From assembly GCA_045631485.1 (NCBI GenBank), contig JAZQUU010000039.1:41194-105193 (forward strand): DNA of 64,000 nucleotides, given 5' to 3'. The notes below the pieces were generated by a model. It worked only from the letters and a program-made list of their open reading frames with translations, was not told the origin of the DNA and ran no database searches. The stretch comes from Clostridia bacterium. Its GTDB lineage: Bacteria > Bacillota > Clostridia > UMGS1840. Position numbers and translations under genes: made by a program. This document shows, piece after piece, positions 5,878 through 62,775 of this stretch (position 1 is its first letter; each line of letters begins with the position of its first letter).

Positions 5878-7434
5878 ATGATCAAAAAACAGCTTTGTTT
5901 TATTCTTACAATTATATATGTATTGATGCTGTTCACAACTCAGCAAATCTTTGCAGAAACGTCTTTGGATGCAATTACATATCATATTGATTTTGTGGAA
6001 ACTCCGCAAAACGGTGCCTTAAAAATTAATGTAATATTCCGAGGTGAAATCGGCAGCGAAACATCCTATGAATTTGATGCGTTCAAAGTAGTTTATGAGT
6101 TTGGAACACATAGGTTGTTAAAAGCAGAATACGAACCTGTTTCGTTGAAAACTCCTTTTCAATCTTCTGTAAATCATCGTATCTCTTTATTTACAGATAT
6201 TTCTGATTTAAATGTTAAAGCGTTTCAAACAAAAGTGTTTTTCTTTGATAAAAATCATGAACTGAAACCTGTTGCAATCACTCCCAACGGTAGCAATGAA
6301 TGGCCAATTATGCAAAATGTTCCTGATTATTATTATGAGGAAGCCGAGCGTGTTACCTCCAATATATATCAACTTTATGACGAAAAATCGGATCACGAAT
6401 TTTTCAGTTTCGGTGTGATAACAGACAGCCATGTGGGCATCAACATCCCCGAAGAAAAATTATTAAAAGAAAGTCTGTTCCACGGGATTTTTGCATTGAA
6501 TTCCGTGGGATTGGATGTTGGTTGTGATTTTATTGCACATCTTGGCGACACTACTTGGGAAAACAATATCGATTCCTACCCAAGCTACACGGGAAGTGTT
6601 TATACCACTGATATATTCCAAACCGCAGCCAACTATTATAATGAAAGTATGATATTAGTCGGAAATCACGATCAAACCAATGATCACAAAAGGCAATGGG
6701 AAGCAATGGGGCAATATAATCAGTTTGAAGAAACCGGTCTAAATGAAAAACGTTCCTATGGTTATACTGATTTTACCGATAAAAAAGTTCGTGTAATCGC
6801 TTTAAATACTTGTGATTATCTAGATGGAACGGGTAGCTATGGAATTTCTTACGAGCAACGAGATTTCTTAATGAAGTCCCTTGATTTGTCTCAAAAAGAA
6901 GATGCCGAAGAATGGAAAATCCTGATTTTATCTCATATCCCGCTTGATTTTTACTACAAAAGCGCTCAATGGAACGATTACGATGTCACCAAAGATATCA
7001 TTGGCATTTTAAAAGCTTATCAGGAAGGTGGTTCTTATACCATCAAAGTAAACAACTTGTGGAAAAAAATTCATAACGATACCATTTCCAAGAAAACTTT
7101 AACCTATAATTATGCAGGCAAAAACCAGGCAAAAATTATTGGAAACATTCACGGGCATTTACATAATGATTGCTATGGCACCTTAGCGTATACCGATATA
7201 GAAGGGGAGAGAACATCAACAGATATTGTGCGAATCTCCACCCCGAATACTGCATTTTACGGTGCTAAAGGAACATCATATCCCAATAACGGTGACTATG
7301 TTGCCGAAGAAATCAGAAAAGTGGCAAACACAGCTAAGGATACTTCAGTCACATTTTATGTCATTGATTTAACCGACGGCATAATTTATTCCTATGCATA
7401 CGGTGCAGGCAATGATAGAGTGATTCCGTATTAA
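5878..7434 (+). CDS. Secreted calcineurin-like metallophosphoesterase with an N-terminal beta-rich domain
   Basis: There is a signal peptide (LMLFTTQQIFA). The metallophosphatase motifs are GVITDSHVG, HLGDT, VGNHD, LSHIPL and GHLHND. Confidence 0.75.
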   Translation: MIKKQLCFILTIIYVLMLFTTQQIFAETSLDAITYHIDFVETPQNGALKINVIFRGEIGSETSYEFDAFKVVYEFGTHRLLKAEYEPVSLKTPFQSSVNHRISLFTDISDLNVKAFQTKVFFFDKNHELKPVAITPNGSNEWPIMQNVPDYYYEEAERVTSNIYQLYDEKSDHEFFSFGVITDSHVGINIPEEKLLKESLFHGIFALNSVGLDVGCDFIAHLGDTTWENNIDSYPSYTGSVYTTDIFQTAANYYNESMILVGNHDQTNDHKRQWEAMGQYNQFEETGLNEKRSYGYTDFTDKKVRVIALNTCDYLDGTGSYGISYEQRDFLMKSLDLSQKEDAEEWKILILSHIPLDFYYKSAQWNDYDVTKDIIGILKAYQEGGSYTIKVNNLWKKIHNDTISKKTLTYNYAGKNQAKIIGNIHGHLHNDCYGTLAYTDIEGERTSTDIVRISTPNTAFYGAKGTSYPNNGDYVAEEIRKVANTAKDTSVTFYVIDLTDGIIYSYAYGAGNDRVIPY

Positions 7435-7470
7435 AAAATAAAATATAATCAATAACAAGGAGGAGCAAAA

Positions 7471-10281
7471 ATGAAGAAATTTATTTTTTGCCTTCTGGCA
7501 CTTCTTCTAGCACTTCAGTTGTCTGCTTTTGCGGAAGAAACCGAAATTGTGCAAAAAGATTTGTTGCCGGAAGCAACCACCCAAGCACTGTCGGTCAATG
7601 ATTTTGTGACCGACACGGAATATCCGTACGAAACTGTGGGATATTTCTTAAATGACGTTGCATTTTTAGGAGAAGATGCGATGGAGGTGTCTATTACTTT
7701 TACCGGTAATTACGGCTCCAATGAGTATTTCTTCTCCAAGTGCTACATTCCTGTTTATAACTACGAAACAGGAAAACTGTTGGATATTTTCTATTCTGAT
7801 GTGGAACTGGTAAGACCCTTTGCCAATTCCAGCAGAACCACCATCAAACGAGTGATTTCCACCAAAAACATTGACACGGATATCTATAAAATTAAGGTAA
7901 TTATGCTGGAATCTCTCACCAGTCTGCGTCCCAATTGTCCGGTTCCTTACTTGGCAAATGAATTAGTAATTTCCAAAAATGATATCGGAAAAGACATTCC
8001 AACTGTAACATTCAAAGGAAAAATGAGGGACGTTCCATTATCCGATGAAGAGCTGTATGTTATTGTTGAAAATATCTACTCCATTAAGTTATCGGATGCA
8101 GCTTTTGCGATGGGATATTCTAACTACGACTTTGACGATAATATGTCATTTAAAAACAACTTAGATTTAAAGCCGTATTTAGGATTATATTGTGATTTTG
8201 TAGTAGATTTATCCGACGAATTAAATTGGGAAATTATATCAGTAACTCCCACAGAAGGTAAAAATATTGAAGTTGTGATTGATCCTGAATTATTAGTCAG
8301 CACCAATAACAGCGGTTATGTGGAATATTATAAATCCTACGACGATAAAAAAACAAGTAAATTAAAACTCGATTATGCTCTGATTGCATATTGTAATTTA
8401 GTATATGACTCTTACGATTATATTGTTGTTCCCGGAGGAAATGTAGGAGATATTGCTTACAGATTCGTAGATACCGATTACAACGGAATGTATGATACTG
8501 TATTTGTTAAAAATGAGCAAGTATTTGTTGCAGGTTATGTAAATACTGCTACCAACAAAATTTATAGAGATACTTATACTAATATTTCACCCACATTCTT
8601 AGCTACCTCTTTAGCTTTAGATCCGGAGGATGAATATATCAGTTGGTCTATTCATGATATCGAAGGTAACACAATGGAGCTTGGCGATATCAAAGCCGGT
8701 GATGTGATTGCAGTTGCAACATCTTGGTCTAACGGGTATGAATATTATGATATTACGGTATCCAACGAAGAAATTGAAGGATATGTTACTGAATTTTATT
8801 ATGAAGTTACTCCCAATGGATTAACTCTTAACAAAATCAGCATTGAAAAGGACTCTCAAAAAAACGGATATATGATGGCAGATAATTCTGTTCCGGTAGA
8901 TTTTGGTGACTATATTCGTGCAAAAATATATGACGGCAAAATCTGGTCCTATGAAGTTACAAATCTTTGCTACGGAGTAATTCTTGATTCTGCAGTTGAG
9001 GAAGGATTTTCTAACACATATCAGGTGAAACTTTTAAACCGTAACGGTGAATCAGAAGTTTTCACTTTGGCTGACAGAGTCAATCATAAGTCTCCGAATT
9101 ATTCGTCCAATGATGAAATAAGAGCTGATTTTCCTGTAGGCGATATCATTGCATACCAATTAAATTCCGATGGAAAAATCTATGCATATGATGTTCAGAC
9201 AGGATATGATTCGCTTGATGCCAATGCATTGCAAATAAATAATAAATTTGTTGAGACATCCTCCACCTATCGTGAAAGCTCTAACAAATTAGGCTCCTAT
9301 TATTTGACAGAAGATACCTTGGTATATATTAGTGAAGTATCCCGTGAAGAAATCACACAAGATGATATTATTTTAATGAATGACTATTCCTTTGTGGATG
9401 ATGCAAACTATCAGTATTCCGTTTTATATGATGACGATACAAGAGATGCTCTCGTTGTTTTTTTGTATGAAGTGAATTTGGATGATTCTACCGAAGAAGG
9501 TGACGATGAGAAAGAAGATGGGGAAGAGGACGAAGTATTTACTTATGAATATCCTTTGGTTGTTACCAAAACCGAAACTGTTACTGTAGACGGTGAACCC
9601 CGTACAAAAATCTGGGGATATATTAATAGCGAAGTAGTGGAATTTTTAGTAGCCTCCAATGCTGATGCTGTTGTATCAACACTTTCGAAGGGGGATGTAG
9701 CAAATATCACCTGTACGAACAATGGAACAAATACCCTTGACCAGATTGTTACTGCACAGTTGATTGCTGAAAAGAATGAAAATGGTTATATCGTAATTGA
9801 TAATGCTATGGCAGGAGCAGCTGATGATACCTACCAGAAAATTGATGGAAATTATGTCACATTAAACACATTCAATTGTTATAATCCGGAAGTAATGATG
9901 AGTATTGGTCAAATTGCTTCTTTAGAAGGCTTTGGTGCAGCAGGGAAGGGATATCGTGTTCAGGGAAACTTGTTACGGTTAATCAACGCCAACGATTATC
10001 CGCAAACATTTGGAAGTTACGAAAGAATTTATAGTGCTTCCTACGATGAAGACAGAATCCAAGATTATTATGTTGATACCTACAGCTTATCTACCTATTG
10101 CTACAACGCAAAATTAGATACCATCAGAGTCACTAGTATCTATGATTTGGAAACGGATAATAATACTATGGATTATAGATATGCAGATCAATTAGATAAT
10201 GATGATCTAATTTATGTTTATAACTATGATGGAGAAACAAAATTAATTCTAATCGTGGATGTTATGGGTGATAATCTGTAA
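7471..10281 (+). CDS. Large secreted protein of unknown function (936 aa)
   Basis: There is a signal peptide (MKKFIFCLLALLLALQLSAFA). The N-terminal ~110 aa resemble the N-terminal domain of the upstream phosphoesterase. An acidic linker (DDSTEEGDDEKEDGEEDE) is present, and the RBS AAGGAGG is strong. Confidence 0.6.
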   Translation: MKKFIFCLLALLLALQLSAFAEETEIVQKDLLPEATTQALSVNDFVTDTEYPYETVGYFLNDVAFLGEDAMEVSITFTGNYGSNEYFFSKCYIPVYNYETGKLLDIFYSDVELVRPFANSSRTTIKRVISTKNIDTDIYKIKVIMLESLTSLRPNCPVPYLANELVISKNDIGKDIPTVTFKGKMRDVPLSDEELYVIVENIYSIKLSDAAFAMGYSNYDFDDNMSFKNNLDLKPYLGLYCDFVVDLSDELNWEIISVTPTEGKNIEVVIDPELLVSTNNSGYVEYYKSYDDKKTSKLKLDYALIAYCNLVYDSYDYIVVPGGNVGDIAYRFVDTDYNGMYDTVFVKNEQVFVAGYVNTATNKIYRDTYTNISPTFLATSLALDPEDEYISWSIHDIEGNTMELGDIKAGDVIAVATSWSNGYEYYDITVSNEEIEGYVTEFYYEVTPNGLTLNKISIEKDSQKNGYMMADNSVPVDFGDYIRAKIYDGKIWSYEVTNLCYGVILDSAVEEGFSNTYQVKLLNRNGESEVFTLADRVNHKSPNYSSNDEIRADFPVGDIIAYQLNSDGKIYAYDVQTGYDSLDANALQINNKFVETSSTYRESSNKLGSYYLTEDTLVYISEVSREEITQDDIILMNDYSFVDDANYQYSVLYDDDTRDALVVFLYEVNLDDSTEEGDDEKEDGEEDEVFTYEYPLVVTKTETVTVDGEPRTKIWGYINSEVVEFLVASNADAVVSTLSKGDVANITCTNNGTNTLDQIVTAQLIAEKNENGYIVIDNAMAGAADDTYQKIDGNYVTLNTFNCYNPEVMMSIGQIASLEGFGAAGKGYRVQGNLLRLINANDYPQTFGSYERIYSASYDEDRIQDYYVDTYSLSTYCYNAKLDTIRVTSIYDLETDNNTMDYRYADQLDNDDLIYVYNYDGETKLILIVDVMGDNL

Positions 10282-30328: not shown

Positions 30329-30591
30329 ACGAAGTTCGTGTCAAGTCAGGAGAACAGTGAATAATAAGAACCATCACGAAATATAACGAAATCAAAGATT
30401 TCTATATTTCGGAGAACCTTGATACTCGCAGGCTCGTATTAGGACCTACTATTTTTATCCTTATTTTTCACTGCTTTTCCCTCGAACAATTTCCTTAGAA
30501 CCCGCGAGAATAATGGATTTTCTCGCACCCGATGATATATGTAAATATCAAAATCGGCAAACTATTCTTTTAAATTGTATGGACTTGACAC
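30329..30591 (-). repeat. Copy A of a ~260-nt conserved structured non-coding element (candidate ncRNA or ssDNA-structured element), immediately 3' of ORF 30605..31129
   Basis: It is homologous to 52462-52738, with long identical blocks. It has a covarying hairpin at 30378-30410 and the hairpin GCGAGAA-N9-TTCTCGC at 30504-30526. A 10-bp terminal helix pairs 30338-30347 with 30582-30591. There is no credible ORF. Confidence 0.75.
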
Positions 30592-30604
30592 AAATCTTAA
30601 TTTG

Positions 30605-31129
30605 TTAGATTTGCAATCTTAATTTTGGTACAAACAATGAAAGAATAGCCTTTGCTTTTCCACCAAAACTCAAATCACCAAACCTCATGTCATCAAATCC
30701 GTCATTTTCATAATAAAAATCAGTTATAACAATTTCTTTCACCTTAAGAACACCAACATCTTCATCATCCACTTTTGTTTGAGTAATATTCTTATCAATA
30801 ACTACAACATATTTTGCCATATAGTCAAGGTCAAATTCTTTATTGATTTTTAATAATCTCGGGTTACAAATTGTATTAAGACACACATATTCATTCTCTA
30901 TATCTTTGTTCGTAGATTTCTCTACTCCCCAACTTGCACCTGTTACATAATCATAATCCAAAATACACACATCAACATTTTCTGTTTTATATTTATCTTG
31001 AATTAACTCATAAACATAATCAGCCTCATGAGGATTTATAGAGCAGATTTTTATGTTATTAACAACAAAGAACAAAACTACAATAACCAATAAGATTAAT
31101 GCTACATAAACTTTCTTATATTTTTTCAT
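30605..31129 (-). CDS. Hypothetical membrane-anchored protein (174 aa), cargo gene of repeat unit A
   Basis: The ATG at 31129 lies 7 nt after GGAG. A single N-terminal TM helix (VYVALILLVIVVLFFVV) is followed by a soluble domain. I recognise no family. Confidence 0.6.
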   Translation of the reverse strand: MKKYKKVYVALILLVIVVLFFVVNNIKICSINPHEADYVYELIQDKYKTENVDVCILDYDYVTGASWGVEKSTNKDIENEYVCLNTICNPRLLKINKEFDLDYMAKYVVVIDKNITQTKVDDEDVGVLKVKEIVITDFYYENDGFDDMRFGDLSFGGKAKAILSLFVPKLRLQI

Positions 31130-31164
31130 AAAATTACTCCTTTCTACATCATTCCCCACAATCC

Positions 31165-31199
31165 GACACGATTCTTACTCGTGTCAAGTCAGGATAAAA
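31165..31199 (-). repeat. 5' hairpin site of unit A (LE-A)
   Basis: The minus strand reads TTTTATCCTGACTTGACACGA-gtaagaa-TCGTGTC. The 21-nt core TCCTGACTTGACACGAGTAAG is identical to the distal end of element copy B. Confidence 0.7.
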
Positions 31200-31209
31200 A
31201 TATACTATC

Positions 31210-31238
31210 ATTCTATCACACAAATGCTATAATGTCAA
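31210..31238 (-). promoter_or_regulatory. Sigma-A type promoter firing into LE-A and cargo gene A
   Basis: On the minus strand, TTGACA, a 17-nt spacer, then TAGAAT preceded by an extended -10 TGa. The predicted start site falls a few nt before the conserved TTTTATCC. Confidence 0.6.
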
Positions 31239-31273: not shown

Positions 31274-31302
31274 TTGACAATGTAGGGAAAATCGGGTAAA
31301 AT
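31274..31302 (+). promoter_or_regulatory. Sigma-A type promoter for tex
   Basis: TTGACA, a 17-nt spacer, then TAAAAT. Confidence 0.55.
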
Positions 31303-45315: not shown

Positions 45316-45352
45316 TTGTGATTAACCTTTCCGCTCATCGTATAAACCCGCT

Positions 45353-45372
45353 ATGACAAACCTATAATAAAT
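45353..45372 (-). promoter_or_regulatory. Direct-repeat motif copy 1 (degenerate second unit), upstream of the GGDEF gene
   Basis: The plus strand reads ATGACAAACCTATAATAAAT. The flank AAACCCGYTATGACAAACCTAT is shared with copy 3. Confidence 0.45.
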
Positions 45373-45919
45373 TTGAGATGCGTTTTTTTGCGTTATCCAT
45401 AATTTCTTGCACATTTGCGCCGAAGATATCAAGCCCTTCTGCCGAGTAAAAGCTGATATCCGAAATACCGAAAAAGTTTTCCGAAAGTGCTTTTACATAG
45501 TCAAAACCGAAATTGTTGTTGCCGATATACCCACCCGAGGTAGTGATATAATATAACTTTTTAGCTTTGCATTTACTTACGGGGCGACCTTCTTCGGAAT
45601 ATTCGAAAGTGATTCCCGAAACTGTGATATTTTCCAAATAAATTTTTAAAATAGCAGGAAACGACAAATCCCAATACGGTGCCGCAATCACAATCATATC
45701 CACATTTGCAAACTGCTTTGCATATTTCATTTCCTCCTCGGAAACCGTATGCAATGCTCTTTTATCGATGTCTTGATTACAAAGGGGTAAAATCTTCTCT
45801 TGATACAAATGAACTTCGATGACTTCCCCGTTCAAGCCATTAAGTAAATGCCTTGAAAGTTCATCGGTTCTTGAATTTGGCCTTGCACAAGCATTGATAA
45901 ACAAGATTTTATTCTTCAT
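45362..45919 (-). CDS. Flavodoxin-like fold NAD(P)H-dependent FMN oxidoreductase
   Basis: Its ~185 aa, with the N-terminus ILFINACARPNSRT and ITTSGG, fit the NAD(P)H dehydrogenase (quinone)/azoreductase-like family. Confidence 0.7.
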   Translation of the reverse strand: MKNKILFINACARPNSRTDELSRHLLNGLNGEVIEVHLYQEKILPLCNQDIDKRALHTVSEEEMKYAKQFANVDMIVIAAPYWDLSFPAILKIYLENITVSGITFEYSEEGRPVSKCKAKKLYYITTSGGYIGNNNFGFDYVKALSENFFGISDISFYSAEGLDIFGANVQEIMDNAKKRISNLL

Positions 45920-46222: not shown

Positions 46223-46274
46223 AAAAATTCTCCTTTCAAAGAACATAACATAAATATAAAATAGCATATCCGAT

Positions 46275-46294
46275 ATGACAAACCTATGACAAAT
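46275..46294 (-). promoter_or_regulatory. Direct-repeat motif copy 2 with an embedded -35, upstream of the STAS/flavoprotein genes
   Basis: The plus strand reads ATGACAAACCTATGACAAAT. On the minus strand this is TTTGTCATAGG-TTTGTCATATC, then 17 nt to TATATT. Confidence 0.55.
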
Positions 46295-46348
46295 TCAAAT
46301 TTATATACAAAAAATACGGCCGGATGATTCCGACCGTAAACATATTTA

Positions 46349-47128
46349 TTAATTTGTTCCAAGAAGCAGCGAGAGGGTATCTTCTGCCCAGGAATACTGT
46401 GTCATATACTCACCATGAAACTGAGGCATTCCTGTCTTTAAATACCTATGATAATCGCAGTTGATTCTGGAAGGGTCAATTCGGTAATGATAGCCGTCCT
46501 GACAAAAGACATTTTGGGCACCTACATTGGCAAGTGCTTTTTTTAAGTCTCCCACAAGATGTCTTAAATAATCCATATTTTTCACATCATCGGTGTTCTC
46601 AGGCCACATCACGGCACAGATTTGTTTTCCCGTCATCCCGGCACCGTTTCTGTCCACAAGAACAGCAAAAAGTTCTTTTGCTTTGGTGCGCTTAAAGGTA
46701 AGTGCCTCTCCGTTTTTTAAAACTTCGAAATTGCCGAAGCATTTCACGTCTAAAAGCGAAGCATTAGGTTTTTTGCTTTTAATATGGTCAATTTCTTTTT
46801 GAACCGCCTCCGGCGTGATTGGTTTCATAAGATATCCGCTGCAGCGAAGCTGTATGGCATCCAGGGCGTACTCCTCATAACCTGTGCAAAAAACAATTTT
46901 ACATTCGGGATGTAACTCAGTAATCTTTTCTGCCAAAGCAAGACCACCCATCCCGCGCATATTGATATCTAAAAAAGCAACATCTGCACAATTATGAGAA
47001 ATCCACTCCAAAGCGGCGGAGCAGACAGAAAAATCATAAACCTCTTTGATATCGGTCGATGCCTTCACAATATCCGTAAGAGCGTTGAGCATTGGTCTTT
47101 CATCATCTACTGTGATTGCTATCATCAT
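46349..47128 (-). CDS. Response regulator: REC domain + OmpR/SARP-like winged-helix DNA-binding domain
   Basis: The REC domain has DDERPML...FLDINMRGMGG...KP. The C-terminus FGNFEVLKNGEALTFKRTKAKELFAVLV resembles SARP/BTAD-type wHTH domains. The start lies 6 nt after AGGAGG. Confidence 0.8.
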   Translation of the reverse strand: MMIAITVDDERPMLNALTDIVKASTDIKEVYDFSVCSAALEWISHNCADVAFLDINMRGMGGLALAEKITELHPECKIVFCTGYEEYALDAIQLRCSGYLMKPITPEAVQKEIDHIKSKKPNASLLDVKCFGNFEVLKNGEALTFKRTKAKELFAVLVDRNGAGMTGKQICAVMWPENTDDVKNMDYLRHLVGDLKKALANVGAQNVFCQDGYHYRIDPSRINCDYHRYLKTGMPQFHGEYMTQYSWAEDTLSLLLGTN

Positions 47129-52272: not shown

Positions 52273-52347
52273 AGTAATTCTCCTTAGTTCATTTATTTCT
52301 TCTTACCAAATTAAATACCAATTATTTTTTATATTATCAAACCCGTT

Positions 52348-52367
52348 ATGACAAACCTATGACAAAT
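52348..52367 (-). promoter_or_regulatory. Direct-repeat motif copy 3, upstream of gene 51262..52272
   Basis: The plus strand reads ATGACAAACCTATGACAAAT. On the minus strand this is TTTGTCATAGG-TTTGTCATAAC, then 15-17 nt to TATAAA/TAAAAA. Confidence 0.55.
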
Positions 52368-52375
52368 TATTTTAT

Positions 52376-52428
52376 AAAAAAACAAAATGCAATACTCGTA
52401 TGTATCTGACAAACAAGTATTGCATTTT
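52376..52428 (-). terminator. Rho-independent terminator ending the cargo-B plus element-B transcript
   Basis: A 13-bp stem, AAAATGCAATACT/AGTATTGCATTTT, is followed on the minus strand by T7. Confidence 0.8.
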
Positions 52429-52461
52429 AGTTTAACATTGAGATTTATTATAAAATCATTT

Positions 52462-52738
52462 GACACAACGCTTACTCGTGTCAAGTCAGGAGAACAGTGA
52501 ATAATAAGAACCATCACCCAACACGAAATCACAGATTTCTGTTGGGTACCCGAGAGCCTTGATACTCGCAAGCTCGTATTAGGACCTACTAACTTTTCCC
52601 TATTTTTTCACTATAGTTTTTCCGAACAAAATTCTTTAGAACCCGCGAGAATACTGAATTTTCTCGCTCCTGCTTTTTATGTAAATATCATAAATCGGCA
52701 AACTAATATTTTAAATTTTATAGACTTGACACGAGTAA
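52462..52738 (-). repeat. Copy B of the ~260-nt conserved structured non-coding element, immediately 3' of ORF 52747..53484
   Basis: It is homologous to 30329-30591. A perfect 16-bp terminal helix pairs 52472-52487 with 52723-52738. It has a covarying hairpin at 52517-52546, the hairpin GCGAGAA-N9-TTCTCGC at 52645-52667, and a distal hairpin GACACGA-N7-TTGTGTC (minus sense). Confidence 0.8.
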
Positions 52739-52746
52739 AACAAAAA

Positions 52747-53484
52747 TCATCTTATATCAAATGCACACTCGTCGGTTGTGTTAGTTAATTCAGCCCACCT
52801 AGCTGAAAGCAATTTGGCATAGTCCAAATAAAACAAACCATAGCACCCTAACGCATATCCGTCATTTACTTCAATCATCAATGTCCTACCATCATCAGTT
52901 ACACCAAAGTCTATTGCATATCCTTTGGGTGCAGTAGAGAAAGCTTTCACAGCATCCTCAATGACCGATGGGTTATAGTGAATTTTCCAATCACCTTTGT
53001 ATGGTCTTACATCCAGTATTTTGTCATATCTAACAAAACATCTCCACTCTGCTGTAAAATTTACAATTTCAGAGCACATCGCGTCGGGATCTTCCCCACA
53101 TGTTCCACACCCTATTAAATCTTTAGGAGACCGAACAACAACACCAGTAAATTTTTTATCTTCAACTGGCTTCACAAAAACTGGCCACATGTCTGGATTA
53201 TTGGTTACTTGACTCATTTTTACCGGCCAGATTTTTCTTCCTAAAAATCTTGACAACTCATTAGGGTAATCCATTTCAGGTGTTATAATATTAAAATCAA
53301 ACAATCTTTCTCTTACTGTACCAACATATCCAACAACCACATCTTCAATGTTACTTTTTCTTAATTCTTCGGGAGTTTGGAACATAATCGTTTCAAATCC
53401 CATTTCCTTAAATCCCTGATAAGCATTAAAAAAATTATAATTGTGTGGCATATAATCATTTTTAGATTGTATATACACTTTCAT
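52747..53484 (-). CDS. ATP-grasp-like protein (DUF4343-type), cargo gene of repeat unit B
   Basis: FVKPVEDKKFTGVVV, EWRCFVRYDKILDVRPY and YAIDFGVTDDGRTLMIEVNDGYALG resemble the ATP-grasp DUF4343 family. Confidence 0.65.
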   Translation of the reverse strand: MKVYIQSKNDYMPHNYNFFNAYQGFKEMGFETIMFQTPEELRKSNIEDVVVGYVGTVRERLFDFNIITPEMDYPNELSRFLGRKIWPVKMSQVTNNPDMWPVFVKPVEDKKFTGVVVRSPKDLIGCGTCGEDPDAMCSEIVNFTAEWRCFVRYDKILDVRPYKGDWKIHYNPSVIEDAVKAFSTAPKGYAIDFGVTDDGRTLMIEVNDGYALGCYGLFYLDYAKLLSARWAELTNTTDECAFDIR

Positions 53485-53526
53485 TAAGTATTCACCACCA
53501 TATTTCCTTGTTTTTCAATCTTATTC

Positions 53527-53561
53527 GACACAATTCGAGTTCGTGTCAAGACAGGATAAAA
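53527..53561 (-). repeat. 5' hairpin site of unit B (LE-B)
   Basis: The minus strand reads TTTTATCCTGTCTTGACACGA-actcgaa-TTGTGTC, which has the same architecture as LE-A. Confidence 0.7.
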
Positions 53562-53700
53562 CAATTGTTTTAATATCGATTAACCAAGCTTAAAATTTGA
53601 AAATTTAAATATTTCTTTTATTAGTCACAGTATAGCACTATCCCCGGTTTGTGTCAAGGAATCTTCCCGGAAAAAAATATTGATTTTTTTATAAAAATGC

Positions 53701-61762: not shown

Positions 61763-62041
61763 TTATTTAATCTGGGGCAGAATTTTTTCTACATCACCGT
61801 GCGGTCTCGGAATAACGTGAACAGCAACGATTTCGCCCAGTCTTGCAGCAGCTTCAGCGCCTGCTTCGGTAGCAGATTTAACTGCACCAACGTCGCCTCT
61901 AACCATAACGCTTACTAAACCGGAACCGATTTTTTCAGTACCGATTAAGGTAACGTTAGCTGCTTTTACCATTGCATCAGCTGCTTCAATTGCAGCTACT
62001 AAACCTCTGGTTTCAACCATTCCTAAAGCTTCAAAGTTCAT
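61763..62041 (-). CDS. BMC-H hexamer shell protein (PduA/EutM-like)
   Basis: [27 protein letters not shown]. The start lies 8 nt after GGAGG. Confidence 0.92.
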
Positions 62042-62087
62042 TACGAATACCTCCATAATTTATTTTTTGTTTTTTACGAAATTGGAT

Positions 62088-62444: not shown

Positions 62445-62723
62445 TTACTTTAATTCGGGTAAGATTTTTTCCACATCGCCGTGGGGTCTGGGAATTACGT
62501 GTACAGCAACGATTTCGCCTAATCTTGCAGCAGCCTGAGAGCCTGCTTCGGTAGCAGCTTTTACTGCACCAACATCGCCTCTAACCATAACACTTACTAA
62601 ACCGGAACCGATTTTTTCGGTACCAACTAAAGTAACGTTAGCTGCTTTTACCATTGCATCAGCTGCTTCGATTGCAGCTACTAAACCTCTGGTTTCAACC
62701 ATACCTAATGCTTCAAAATTCAT
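62445..62723 (-). CDS. BMC-H hexamer shell protein (near-duplicate of 61763..62041)
   Basis: The 92-aa protein differs from the 61763 paralog at only a handful of residues. Confidence 0.92.
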
Positions 62724-62775
62724 TTTTAAATCCTCCTGGCCTTTGGCCTTTTATAATAATTTTTATTAACGATTG

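Follow-up and report, generated by a model that had tools for sequence, protein, structure and literature searches.

We analysed a stretch of 64,000 nucleotides (the window) from a Clostridia bacterium of the UMGS1840 lineage (GenBank assembly GCA_045631485.1, contig JAZQUU010000039.1, positions 41,194 to 105,193 of the forward strand) and focused on two units on its minus strand, A and B. In each of them an unrelated protein-coding gene is followed by a conserved, folded, non-coding element, and copies of a short site, which we call S, mark the junctions. The element and the kind of cassette defined by S are undescribed and are widespread in uncultured gut Clostridia. The units have sharp boundaries inside S, orthologous sites are empty or hold other genes, and the same units are found in different species. 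The reading we favour, to which we give an even chance, is that units A and B are mobile gene cassettes that were integrated by site-specific recombination at S, with the enzyme acting in trans.

Two units share one anatomy around unrelated genes

Unit A is preceded by a sigma-70-type promoter (TTGACA-17-TAGAAT, 31210 to 31238, minus strand), which matches 11 of 12 positions and carries the TG of an extended -10 box. Further along the same strand come the 5' site TTTTATCCTGACTTGACACGA-gtaagaa-TCGTGTC (31199 to 31165), a ribosome-binding site (RBS), and the cargo open reading frame (ORF) A at 30605 to 31129, which encodes 174 aa with a hydrophobic, membrane-anchoring N-terminus and has no match to a Pfam family. 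An inverted copy of the S core, TTTGTGTCAAGTCC, stands right after the stop codon of ORF A. The folded element A (30336 to 30596), a long variant of about 261 nt, begins about 10 nt past this stop codon; it consists of the inverted repeat S', the helices P2-P6 and, at its distal end, a direct copy of the core, TCCTGACTTGACACGA (30351 to 30336). An optional two-hairpin domain of element A (30365 to 30441), missing in short variants of the element, lies inside the P6 loop. All parts that the original prediction had described from the letters of the window were found.

In unit B the same anatomy surrounds a different, unrelated ORF, with 1065 nt from S to S. Its promoter (TTGACA-17-TATACT, 53629 to 53657, minus strand) again matches 11 of 12 positions and has the TG extension. 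Cargo ORF B (52747 to 53484) encodes an R2K-clade ATP-grasp protein of 245 aa (PF14243/PF18299), and the folded element B (52476 to 52740), a long variant of about 265 nt, has its left inverted repeat, TTTTACTCGTGTCAAGTC, at 52740 to 52723 and its S-left at 52491 to 52476. The resident S-right that follows (GTAAGCGTTGTGTCAAATGAT, 52455 to 52475) completes a hairpin with this S-left. Read from the letters, a terminator-like hairpin with a T-run (AAAATGCAATACTTG...CGAGTATTGCATTTT, then the run of T; 52374 to 52427, minus strand) would close the unit B transcript; the terminator scanner did not list it because its loop is longer than 8 nt. The earlier claim that hairpin-containing copies of the site bracket the cargo in direct orientation holds for unit B; the 3' copy of unit A has no right hairpin arm.

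The identity between elements A and B is 84%, and ORFs A and B are unrelated. The 16-mer core of S occurs four times in the window against 0.03 copies expected, a number reached in none of 100 shuffles, and both elements fold far better than shuffled sequence (z = -6.2 for element A and -5.2 for element B). We conclude that the anatomy of the units is not due to chance.

The element belongs to a family found in Clostridia

Most related loci, here given L-numbers, came from a pattern scan of species-representative genomes. The element was found in at least 119 stretches of such genomes, all of them metagenome-assembled genomes of Clostridia and mostly from animal and human gut; among the matches listed, the carriers are labelled Oscillospiraceae, Acutalibacteraceae, Congzhengia, Ructibacterium, Aphodoplasma and Lachnospiraceae, among others. 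An nhmmer profile of the element gave 195 matches in the fetched loci and the window. Elements occur in two size classes, a short one of about 190 nt and a long one of about 260-285 nt with the added two-hairpin domain, within an overall range of 175-285 nt.

The position of the element relative to genes is regular. About 125 of the 136 elements with an intact 5' end start within 70 nt, and mostly 0-30 nt, past the stop codon of a co-oriented ORF, and the next co-oriented ORF follows within 80 nt downstream of about 70% of the 136. Arrays of the form S-ORF-element-ORF-element result, with up to four elements at a spacing of about 0.7-1.3 kb.

The element is non-coding, because its indels are not multiples of three and an ATG is confined to the long variants; we therefore rejected a protein-coding element. 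Searches for a known relative were negative throughout. Rfam 15 gave no match at the gathering threshold in the 64-kb window or in 112 kb of arrays, and by E-value only chance-level matches (E > 1) in the 1.1-kb region around unit A. A search for tRNA and tmRNA found none. A phage or plasmid origin was rejected, since pattern scans of IMG/VR gave chance matches or nothing and blastn against plasmids and phages gave no match, and a literature search with core sequences and keywords found no description of the element or of S.

The junction site S

The layout of S is a T-run and CCTGACTTGACACGA to the left of the exchange point discussed below, and GTAAGAAT and TGTGTCGAAT to its right. In general form the left part reads (T-run or CACTGTTCT)CC-TGAC-TTGACACGA, the 7-nt centre is typically GTAAGAA, and the right arm is TYGTGTC followed by GAAT, so that S is an imperfect palindrome of 7-7-7 (up to 11-7-11); subtypes with a shorter loop occur. 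The S hairpin is more frequent than in shuffled sequence, at 57% and 47% against about 20-26%. A need for the right arm only where S' is missing was rejected, since solo and element-linked sites behave alike.

We found 65 stand-alone (solo) sites, with the consensus a.TTTTT..tCCTGACTTGACACGA; solo S heads the arrays. A T-run of 4-7 T, placed 3-4 nt upstream of CCTGAC, is conserved in solo S only (for example 31195-31199 and 53557-53564; 54 sites), and elements carry CACTGTTCT where solo S has the T-run. The T-run is neither a terminator tail nor a promoter discriminator. A discriminator at a fixed distance from the promoter does not fit strong promoters that lie 10-90 nt away and the many solo sites directly past a stop codon, and for a helix between T-run/CC and the RBS/A-run the true partners pair no better than permuted ones.

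At its left end the element has S-left in inverted form, together with the first nucleotides of the centre (cATTTTAC-TYGTGTCAAGTC against GACTTGACACGA-GTAAGAAT). The two ends of the element thus form an inverted repeat of about 20 nt, ATTTTAC-TCGTGTCAAGTC ... GACTTGACACGA-GTAAGAAT, in which GTAA/TTAC reaches beyond the exchange point.

A conserved motif, TTG(G)CATCTAGATTATRCAGTCTTTATA, stands 12-40 nt after a subset of S-left copies (L135 8035-8062, L089 about 860-890, L016, L025 and L130); it might be a promoter, TTGGCA-18-TATATA, and the 2.1-kb insertion in L135, described below, has this motif as its right end. A conserved TTGCATCTAGATTATRCAGTCTTTATA motif follows some S sites.

Cassette boundaries lie within S

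Nine further metagenome contigs encode exactly the same 174-aa protein A, and its cluster at 90% identity has 17 members. Protein A stands behind a solo S in six contigs and in the window, with upstream sequences that are mutually unrelated except for one duplicate pair, and directly behind a full element in three contigs. In every copy the homology to the window starts inside S, and at least nine upstream contexts converge in S. Copies of cassette A have no common sequence on the upstream side of S, which puts the unit A promoter outside the mobile unit, and cassette A inside arrays has no promoter of its own. The original prediction had taken unit A to be self-contained, promoter included, with the predicted transcription start just before the site. 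The first point is wrong, as the promoter is host context, and the second does not hold generally: the unit B promoter, host context as well, lies about 75 nt upstream of its site, and across 54 solo sites strong promoters are 10-90 nt off or absent.

The other end is equally sharp. In the five copies of protein A for which sequence past the element is available, the downstream contexts diverge exactly after CTTGACACGA; the elements that follow ORF A are 269, 196, 196, 175 and 195 nt long.

A scan of all pairs of S sites placed the switch point between positions 0 and +16 of CTTGACACGAGTAAGAA. Two observations narrow this range. One copy of protein A has a GACAAAA-variant left arm and the GTAAGAAT... 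specific to cassette A. In addition, L135 and L136 represent the same locus, and L135 has a 2.1-kb insertion inside S: the empty site of the L136 type reads ...AAAATCATA/TAAAGAGTGTCGAAT, and the occupied left junction in L135 reads ...AAAATCATA/GTAAGATTGTCGAAT. From these two cases we place the exchange point at about GACACGA/GTAAGAA. Since this point lies inside S, a cassette consists of S-right, the ORF, and S'-element-S-left.

The strain-specific L135 insertion (6034-8006) itself contains a gene for a 326-aa HNH endonuclease and a 291-aa ORF without known family, and homing-type mobility of some modules through this endonuclease is a possibility.

With these boundaries, cassette A measures 843 bp (30336 to 31178, minus strand) and runs from S-right (GTAAGAATCGTGTCGGAT) through the RBS, ORF A, the inverted S copy and the folded element to S-left. 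It is inserted next to the resident S-left of the site, a T-run plus TCCTGACTTGACACGA (31179 to 31199). When the flanks of unit A are joined, TTTTTATCCTGACTTGACACGA/ACTTCGTAAAAAC, they align as a canonical solo S. Cassette B measures 1065 bp (52476 to 53540, minus strand), from S-right through the R2K ATP-grasp ORF, the inverted S copy and the folded element to S-left, and its resident S-left is TTGTTTTA plus TCCTGTCTTGACACGA (53541 to 53564).

Cassettes differ between close relatives and are shared between species

Orthologous sites are either empty or carry other cassettes, so that presence/absence polymorphism with precise boundaries, which the original prediction had proposed to look for, does exist. 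At the site upstream of the gene for a CPBP protease (CAAX protease/bacteriocin-processing family), the window has cassette A, L086 has another cassette, with a 300-aa lipoprotein, and L089 has no more than a degenerate S. The lipoprotein cassette of L086 is 98.5% identical to a cassette in L061, where it is preceded by a full element and not by a solo S. L030 and L049 are 95.5% identical downstream of their last S and have different cassettes upstream of it. Cassette B, recognised by a protein in the 90%-identity cluster of cargo B, also occurs within longer arrays (L135-L137).

Identity of cassettes across species reaches 99.6% over 1623 bp (L026/L132), 98.7% (L058/L127) and 98.5% (L061/L086), and several further cross-species pairs are 92-95% identical; the cassettes end at an element or at S. 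The core proteins of the carrier genomes are just 55-75% identical to each other. Likewise, a set of about 15 billion proteins contains no relative of the window's Tex and CPBP proteins at an identity of 90% or above; the clusters of cargo A and cargo B, by contrast, have 17 and 11 members. Element identity is 0.838 within a genome and 0.835 between genomes. An identity of about 85% against 55-75% for core proteins, equal within and between genomes, indicates that the element is spreading DNA and not an anciently conserved RNA.

The cargo differs between copies, another point that the original prediction had raised. The 127 cargo proteins match 89 Pfam families, among them Bro-N (6), Cu_amine_oxidN1 (5), SLH (5), LOG (4), R2K (3) and beta-lactamase-like (3); RhuM, KilA-N, Fic, YhcG nuclease and HNH domains also occur, as does one large serine recombinase. 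Hydrophobic N-terminal segments are modestly enriched in the cargo (38% against 25%, p = 0.004). Outside the cargo, the 295 neighbours within 3 kb have ordinary housekeeping and transport functions. Among all the ORFs and proteins screened, only AraC regulators and transporters recur. Taken together, the sharp boundaries, the many contexts and the sharing across species support well an unusual gene-cassette recombination site, which the original prediction had listed as an alternative.

Pairing in the interior of the element is conserved

RNAalifold on a MAFFT alignment of 71 sequences collapsed through indels, and we instead counted pairs in a hand-drawn model of six helices. On 41 short cores 91.6% of cells are paired in this model, against 35-50% in slid controls, and eight pairs have changed on both sides. 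In P3, GCGAGAA/TTCTCGC is replaced by GCAGGAA/TTCCTGC in 14 of the 71 sequences. The hairpins of the long domain also occur in compensatory forms: UUAUGC/GCAUAA, UUGUGC/GCACAA and UACGAG..CGAGUA; CCCAACA/UGUUGGG, CGAAAUAU/AUAUUUCG, CGAAACAU/AUGUUUCG and CCGGAAUAU/AUAUUCCG; and GAAAUC/GAUUUC against GCAAUC/GAUUGC. Each of these hairpins has two main forms, and these are seen in all four combinations. We tried single-sequence folding as a means of choosing the folding strand and rejected it, as both strands fold equally well; only counts of wobble pairs separate them.

How recombination at S would work

If units A and B are cassettes of this kind, each would start with S-right, hold one or a few promoterless accessory ORFs, and end with the conserved folded element. 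In a single strand, the ends of the element would pair into a stem that holds the exchange point, GACACGA/GTAAGAAT, at a distance of about 8 bp from the stem base, an arrangement known from the attC site of integrons and from the folded attP of the CTX phage. The folded element would then play the part of attC, and the stand-alone, double-stranded S that of attI or attB. A recombinase encoded elsewhere in the genome would exchange strands at the S exchange point, and the outcome would be insertion, excision and shuffling of cassettes, inside an array as well as across species. What the data show is the layout of the units, the element family, the precise boundaries, the polymorphism and the occurrence of cassettes in several species; the recombinase, the single-stranded intermediate and a further RNA role of the interior are inferred.

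Partner sites are not alike in their central regions, and we infer that a tyrosine recombinase with single strand exchange would therefore be the best fit; in integrons and in the CTX-phage/Xer system, single strand exchange resolved by replication tolerates non-identical centres. RecA-dependent recombination is unlikely to be the main mechanism, because the exchanges fall in a core of 17-35 nt beside unrelated flanks, and an S of this length is too short to serve as a RecA substrate.

Several observations weigh against this reading, and some of them concern the enzyme, which we sought in cis by clustering 802 ORFs and by Pfam scans of the 127 cargo proteins and 295 neighbours. In this set neither an integrase nor a transposase, TnpB or reverse transcriptase recurred. 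In the window there was no tblastn match to the integrase of L135 and no recombinase domain in the ten ORFs scanned; the original prediction had likewise seen no mobility enzyme there. The sites themselves raise further points. Of 54 solo sites analysed, 21 lie 10-40 nt past the stop codon of a co-oriented ORF and are therefore junctions between ORFs that have no element; with many junctions holding S alone, the element is not obligatory. The L135 insertion lacks a canonical S-left at its right end. No inversions were seen, although S copies in inverted orientation should permit them.

The remaining points concern the fold. The closing stem P1 has 9 G·U, 13 A·C and 24 others, shows no covariation and has many mismatches in its outer pairs; with neither wobble bias nor covariation, its strands look conserved as sequences. 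Two otherwise intact elements (L007 49-274 and L115 2126-2337) lack the left inverted repeat S', so that the closing stem is not indispensable for keeping the rest of the element. In helices P4-P6, 98 G·U stand against 21 A·C, which makes the sense strand the folding strand of these helices; this bias points to RNA or to folding of the top strand, unlike the bottom strand used by integrons. Finally, the element core has a mean column identity of 86%, with nearly invariant loops and junctions, unlike attC. The sequence conservation, the compensatory changes and the wobble bias suggest that the interior of the element may work also, or instead, as RNA.

Two kinds of recombinase gene were found near elements. 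An Xer-like tyrosine recombinase of 352 aa is encoded in L135 (11364-12422) and L136 (12889-13947) and in no other locus; its gene lies about 60 nt past the last element, in the same orientation, and upstream of AraC, rpsO and pnp. Genes for large serine recombinases, or fragments of such genes, stand within about 1 kb of an element or S in 4 of 119 loci, among the matches listed (L105 2961-4541, L077 4411-7018, L087 941-1375 and L099 7387-7764); in L105 the gene is the ORF immediately upstream of the element, and L081 has a fragment about 6.6 kb from its element. These serine recombinases could be there by chance, could belong to a mobile element that uses S as attB, or could be candidates for the enzyme.

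Comparison with known systems

The closest parallels are with integrons, in particular the sedentary chromosomal ones, and with attC clusters that have no integron integrase (CALINs). As in those systems, co-oriented arrays hold mostly promoterless, heterogeneous accessory ORFs behind an upstream host promoter, a palindromic and foldable site follows a few nucleotides after each ORF, the cassette boundary falls inside the site so that a cassette starts with its right part and ends with its left part, and orthologous arrays differ in content between close relatives. The differences are as clear. An integron has a gene for the tyrosine recombinase IntI beside its array, with attI and the cassette promoter Pc, and its attC sites carry R''/L''/L'/R' boxes. 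No IntI stands next to any array here, the site is 175-285 nt long against 57-141 nt for attC, and in place of the GTTRRRY / RYYYAAC cores of attC, compared by inspection, the cores here are CTTGACACGA/GTAAGAAT (PMC9024848). attC sites are conserved in structure only and vary in sequence, and Bacillota are almost without integrons (PMC9024848). Moreover, the wobble bias here is on the sense strand whereas integrons use the bottom strand, and many short solo sites are scattered in ordinary operons instead of a single attI. With no IntI, no sequence or size of the attC type, and a site that is conserved in sequence, the system is by definition not an integron.

CTX-phages and integrative mobile elements that exploit XerCD (IMEX) at dif likewise use two inverted site copies about 100-250 nt apart, which form a forked single-strand hairpin as the recombination site. 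Their enzyme is a host recombinase encoded elsewhere, and single strand exchange tolerates non-identical centres. Unlike them, the units here are chromosomal cassettes and not phage genomes, and there are many target sites per genome and not one; S presumably has no evident similarity to Firmicute dif. The pdif modules of Acinetobacter plasmids also have no recombinase of their own and are bounded by short sites whose orientation alternates (here S, ORF, S', element, S); neighbouring modules have a site in common, and one module can be found in different contexts. The sites here are presumably not of the 28-bp XerC/XerD 11-6-11 type, the elements are chromosomal, and every second "module" is a conserved non-coding structured element.

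Alternative explanations

The strongest rival is that the element is primarily an RNA, that is, an intercistronic or 3'-untranslated-region (3'-UTR) module, either a structure for nuclease processing or stabilisation or a new self-cleaving ribozyme, with S as an RNA hairpin at the mature 5' end of the next cistron. The cassette mosaic would then be secondary, from horizontal transfer and recombination between repeated sequences. We consider this explanation rather improbable as a whole. In its favour, the element is always co-oriented with its flanking ORFs inside apparent polycistronic units, its interior shows compensatory changes (P3 and the long-domain hairpins) and the sense-strand G·U bias, its loops and junctions hardly vary, and the S hairpin is enriched. 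Since solo S exactly repeats the 3' end of the element, a primary and a processed transcript could share one 5' end. What this explanation leaves unaccounted for are the sharp exchange points in a 17-nt core beside unrelated flanks without RecA homology, and the insertion into S in L135. An element identity across species that is as high between as within genomes and exceeds that of core proteins also speaks against it, as do the lack of an Rfam family and the negative test of a helix from T-run to RBS. The purely RNA-level UTR elements that the original prediction had named as one alternative may still apply to the interior of the element, with its compensatory changes and sense-strand G·U bias.

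Nevertheless, a role as RNA and recombination of cassettes at S are compatible with each other. We put forward tentatively, as somewhat doubtful, that the units belong to an integron-independent cassette platform of gut and rumen Clostridia, in which the folded site of 190-280 nt doubles as a functional RNA and a host recombinase or an unrecognised one acts in trans. The RNA of such a platform might be a processing signal or a ribozyme, or even a guide for recombination.

A non-autonomous transposon similar to miniature inverted-repeat transposable elements (MITEs), with terminal inverted repeats of about 20 nt, ORF segments as mobile insertion cassettes and a DDE transposase in trans, is unlikely. 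The inverted repeat ATTTTACTCGTGTCAAGTC ... GACTTGACACGAGTAAGAAT would suit it, as would the non-coding nature of the element, its many copies that are highly similar between species, and a right end with an outward-facing TTGACA, as in many insertion sequence (IS) ends. Known foldable repeats (REP/BIME, ERIC, Correia and MITEs) are also multicopy, transcribed and intergenic, have inverted termini and stand just past stop codons, and in mobile insertion cassettes (MIC231) passenger genes lie between IS ends and are moved in trans. The element here differs from all of these in being much larger, in its multi-helix interior under selection for pairing, and in its fixed orientation relative to genes. 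Neither the 20 left flanks that were aligned nor the right flanks show a target-site duplication, no cognate RAYT or DDE gene was seen, and about 1 Mb of loci contained neither a DDE transposase nor a complete IS with such ends. Furthermore, simple insertion or excision of an element would not leave solo half-sites, each an S-left with its own conserved T-run.

The original prediction had favoured an HUH/Y1 substrate of the IS200/IS605 or REP/RAYT type, with direct hairpin ends and a right end that encodes RNA, and this we now regard as very improbable. Both ends of unit B do carry hairpin-containing S copies in direct orientation, the structured non-coding segment occupies the 3' end of the unit, the place expected for a right end that encodes an omega RNA, and the core ACTTGAC(A) presumably resembles the CTTG/ATA nick motif of the HUH Rep proteins of pC194 and phiX174. 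Elements of this type, including the derived palindrome-associated transposable elements (PATEs), each have separate sub-terminal hairpins at the left and right ends. Each array junction, however, is one shared site and not a right-end hairpin followed by a left-end hairpin, and the element is bounded by an inverted repeat of about 20 nt, not solely by direct one-strand hairpins. The distance from CTTG to the exchange point, which is 3' of it, is at least 11 nt, and the 3' site of unit A has no hairpin. Y1_Tnp (TnpA), OrfB, TnpB and IscB were non-recurrent in the related loci (about 1 Mb), a result that covers the loci and not a single-copy RAYT-like gene elsewhere in the genome, and no IS605-type, HEARO or related RNA family matched.

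Equally implausible is a purely regulatory S, with TTGACA as -35 box and the T-run as UP element: TTGACA is the best-conserved part of S, the unit B 3' S scores as TTGACA-18-AATGAT and one subtype reads TTGACA-16-TATATA, but a hexamer with A2 and T6 at 16-18 nt is present in just 34 of 53 solo and 30 of 90 element-linked sites, few of which match at four of six positions, the RBS of the short-loop subtype follows at once and leaves no room for a -10 box, and a regulatory role does not explain the cassette boundaries.

Other features of the window

A second strong promoter, TTGACA-17-TAAAAT (31274 to 31302, plus strand), diverges from the unit A promoter at a distance of about 40 nt and points towards the Tex gene. 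A 30-nt motif (AAACCCGNTATGACAAACCTATRAYAAATT), which contains a direct repeat of ATGACAAA-like units, occurs at 45344-45373, 46266-46295 and 52339-52368; all three copies lie in gene-upstream regions, one of them just downstream of unit B. A 259-aa ORF at 46349-47128 may, as a guess from its sequence, encode a LytTR-type response regulator that binds these copies. Finally, a direct repeat of 292 nt (61763-62054 and 62445-62736) has copies that are 88% identical and 682 nt apart. Two ORFs overlap this repeat; they have similar N-termini and belong to a group of short ORFs at 60.6-63.3 kb, and their products are putative paralogous microcompartment shell proteins.

Implications

Integrons are the textbook device for gene capture and shuffling. 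If units A and B are cassettes recombined at S, the system would be a convergent Gram-positive counterpart of the integron, built of unrelated components and with no integrase beside it. It would define a new family of structured nucleic acids of about 200 nt, and it would point to a recombinase with a compact target of 30 nt, of interest for the biology of mobile elements and for genome engineering. The genes exchanged, at cross-species identities of up to 99.6%, encode surface proteins, Fic, RhuM, Bro-N/KilA-N, nucleases and ATP-grasp enzymes, and a system with the logic of an integron would explain how accessory genes are exchanged among the dominant uncultured Clostridia of the gut and rumen.

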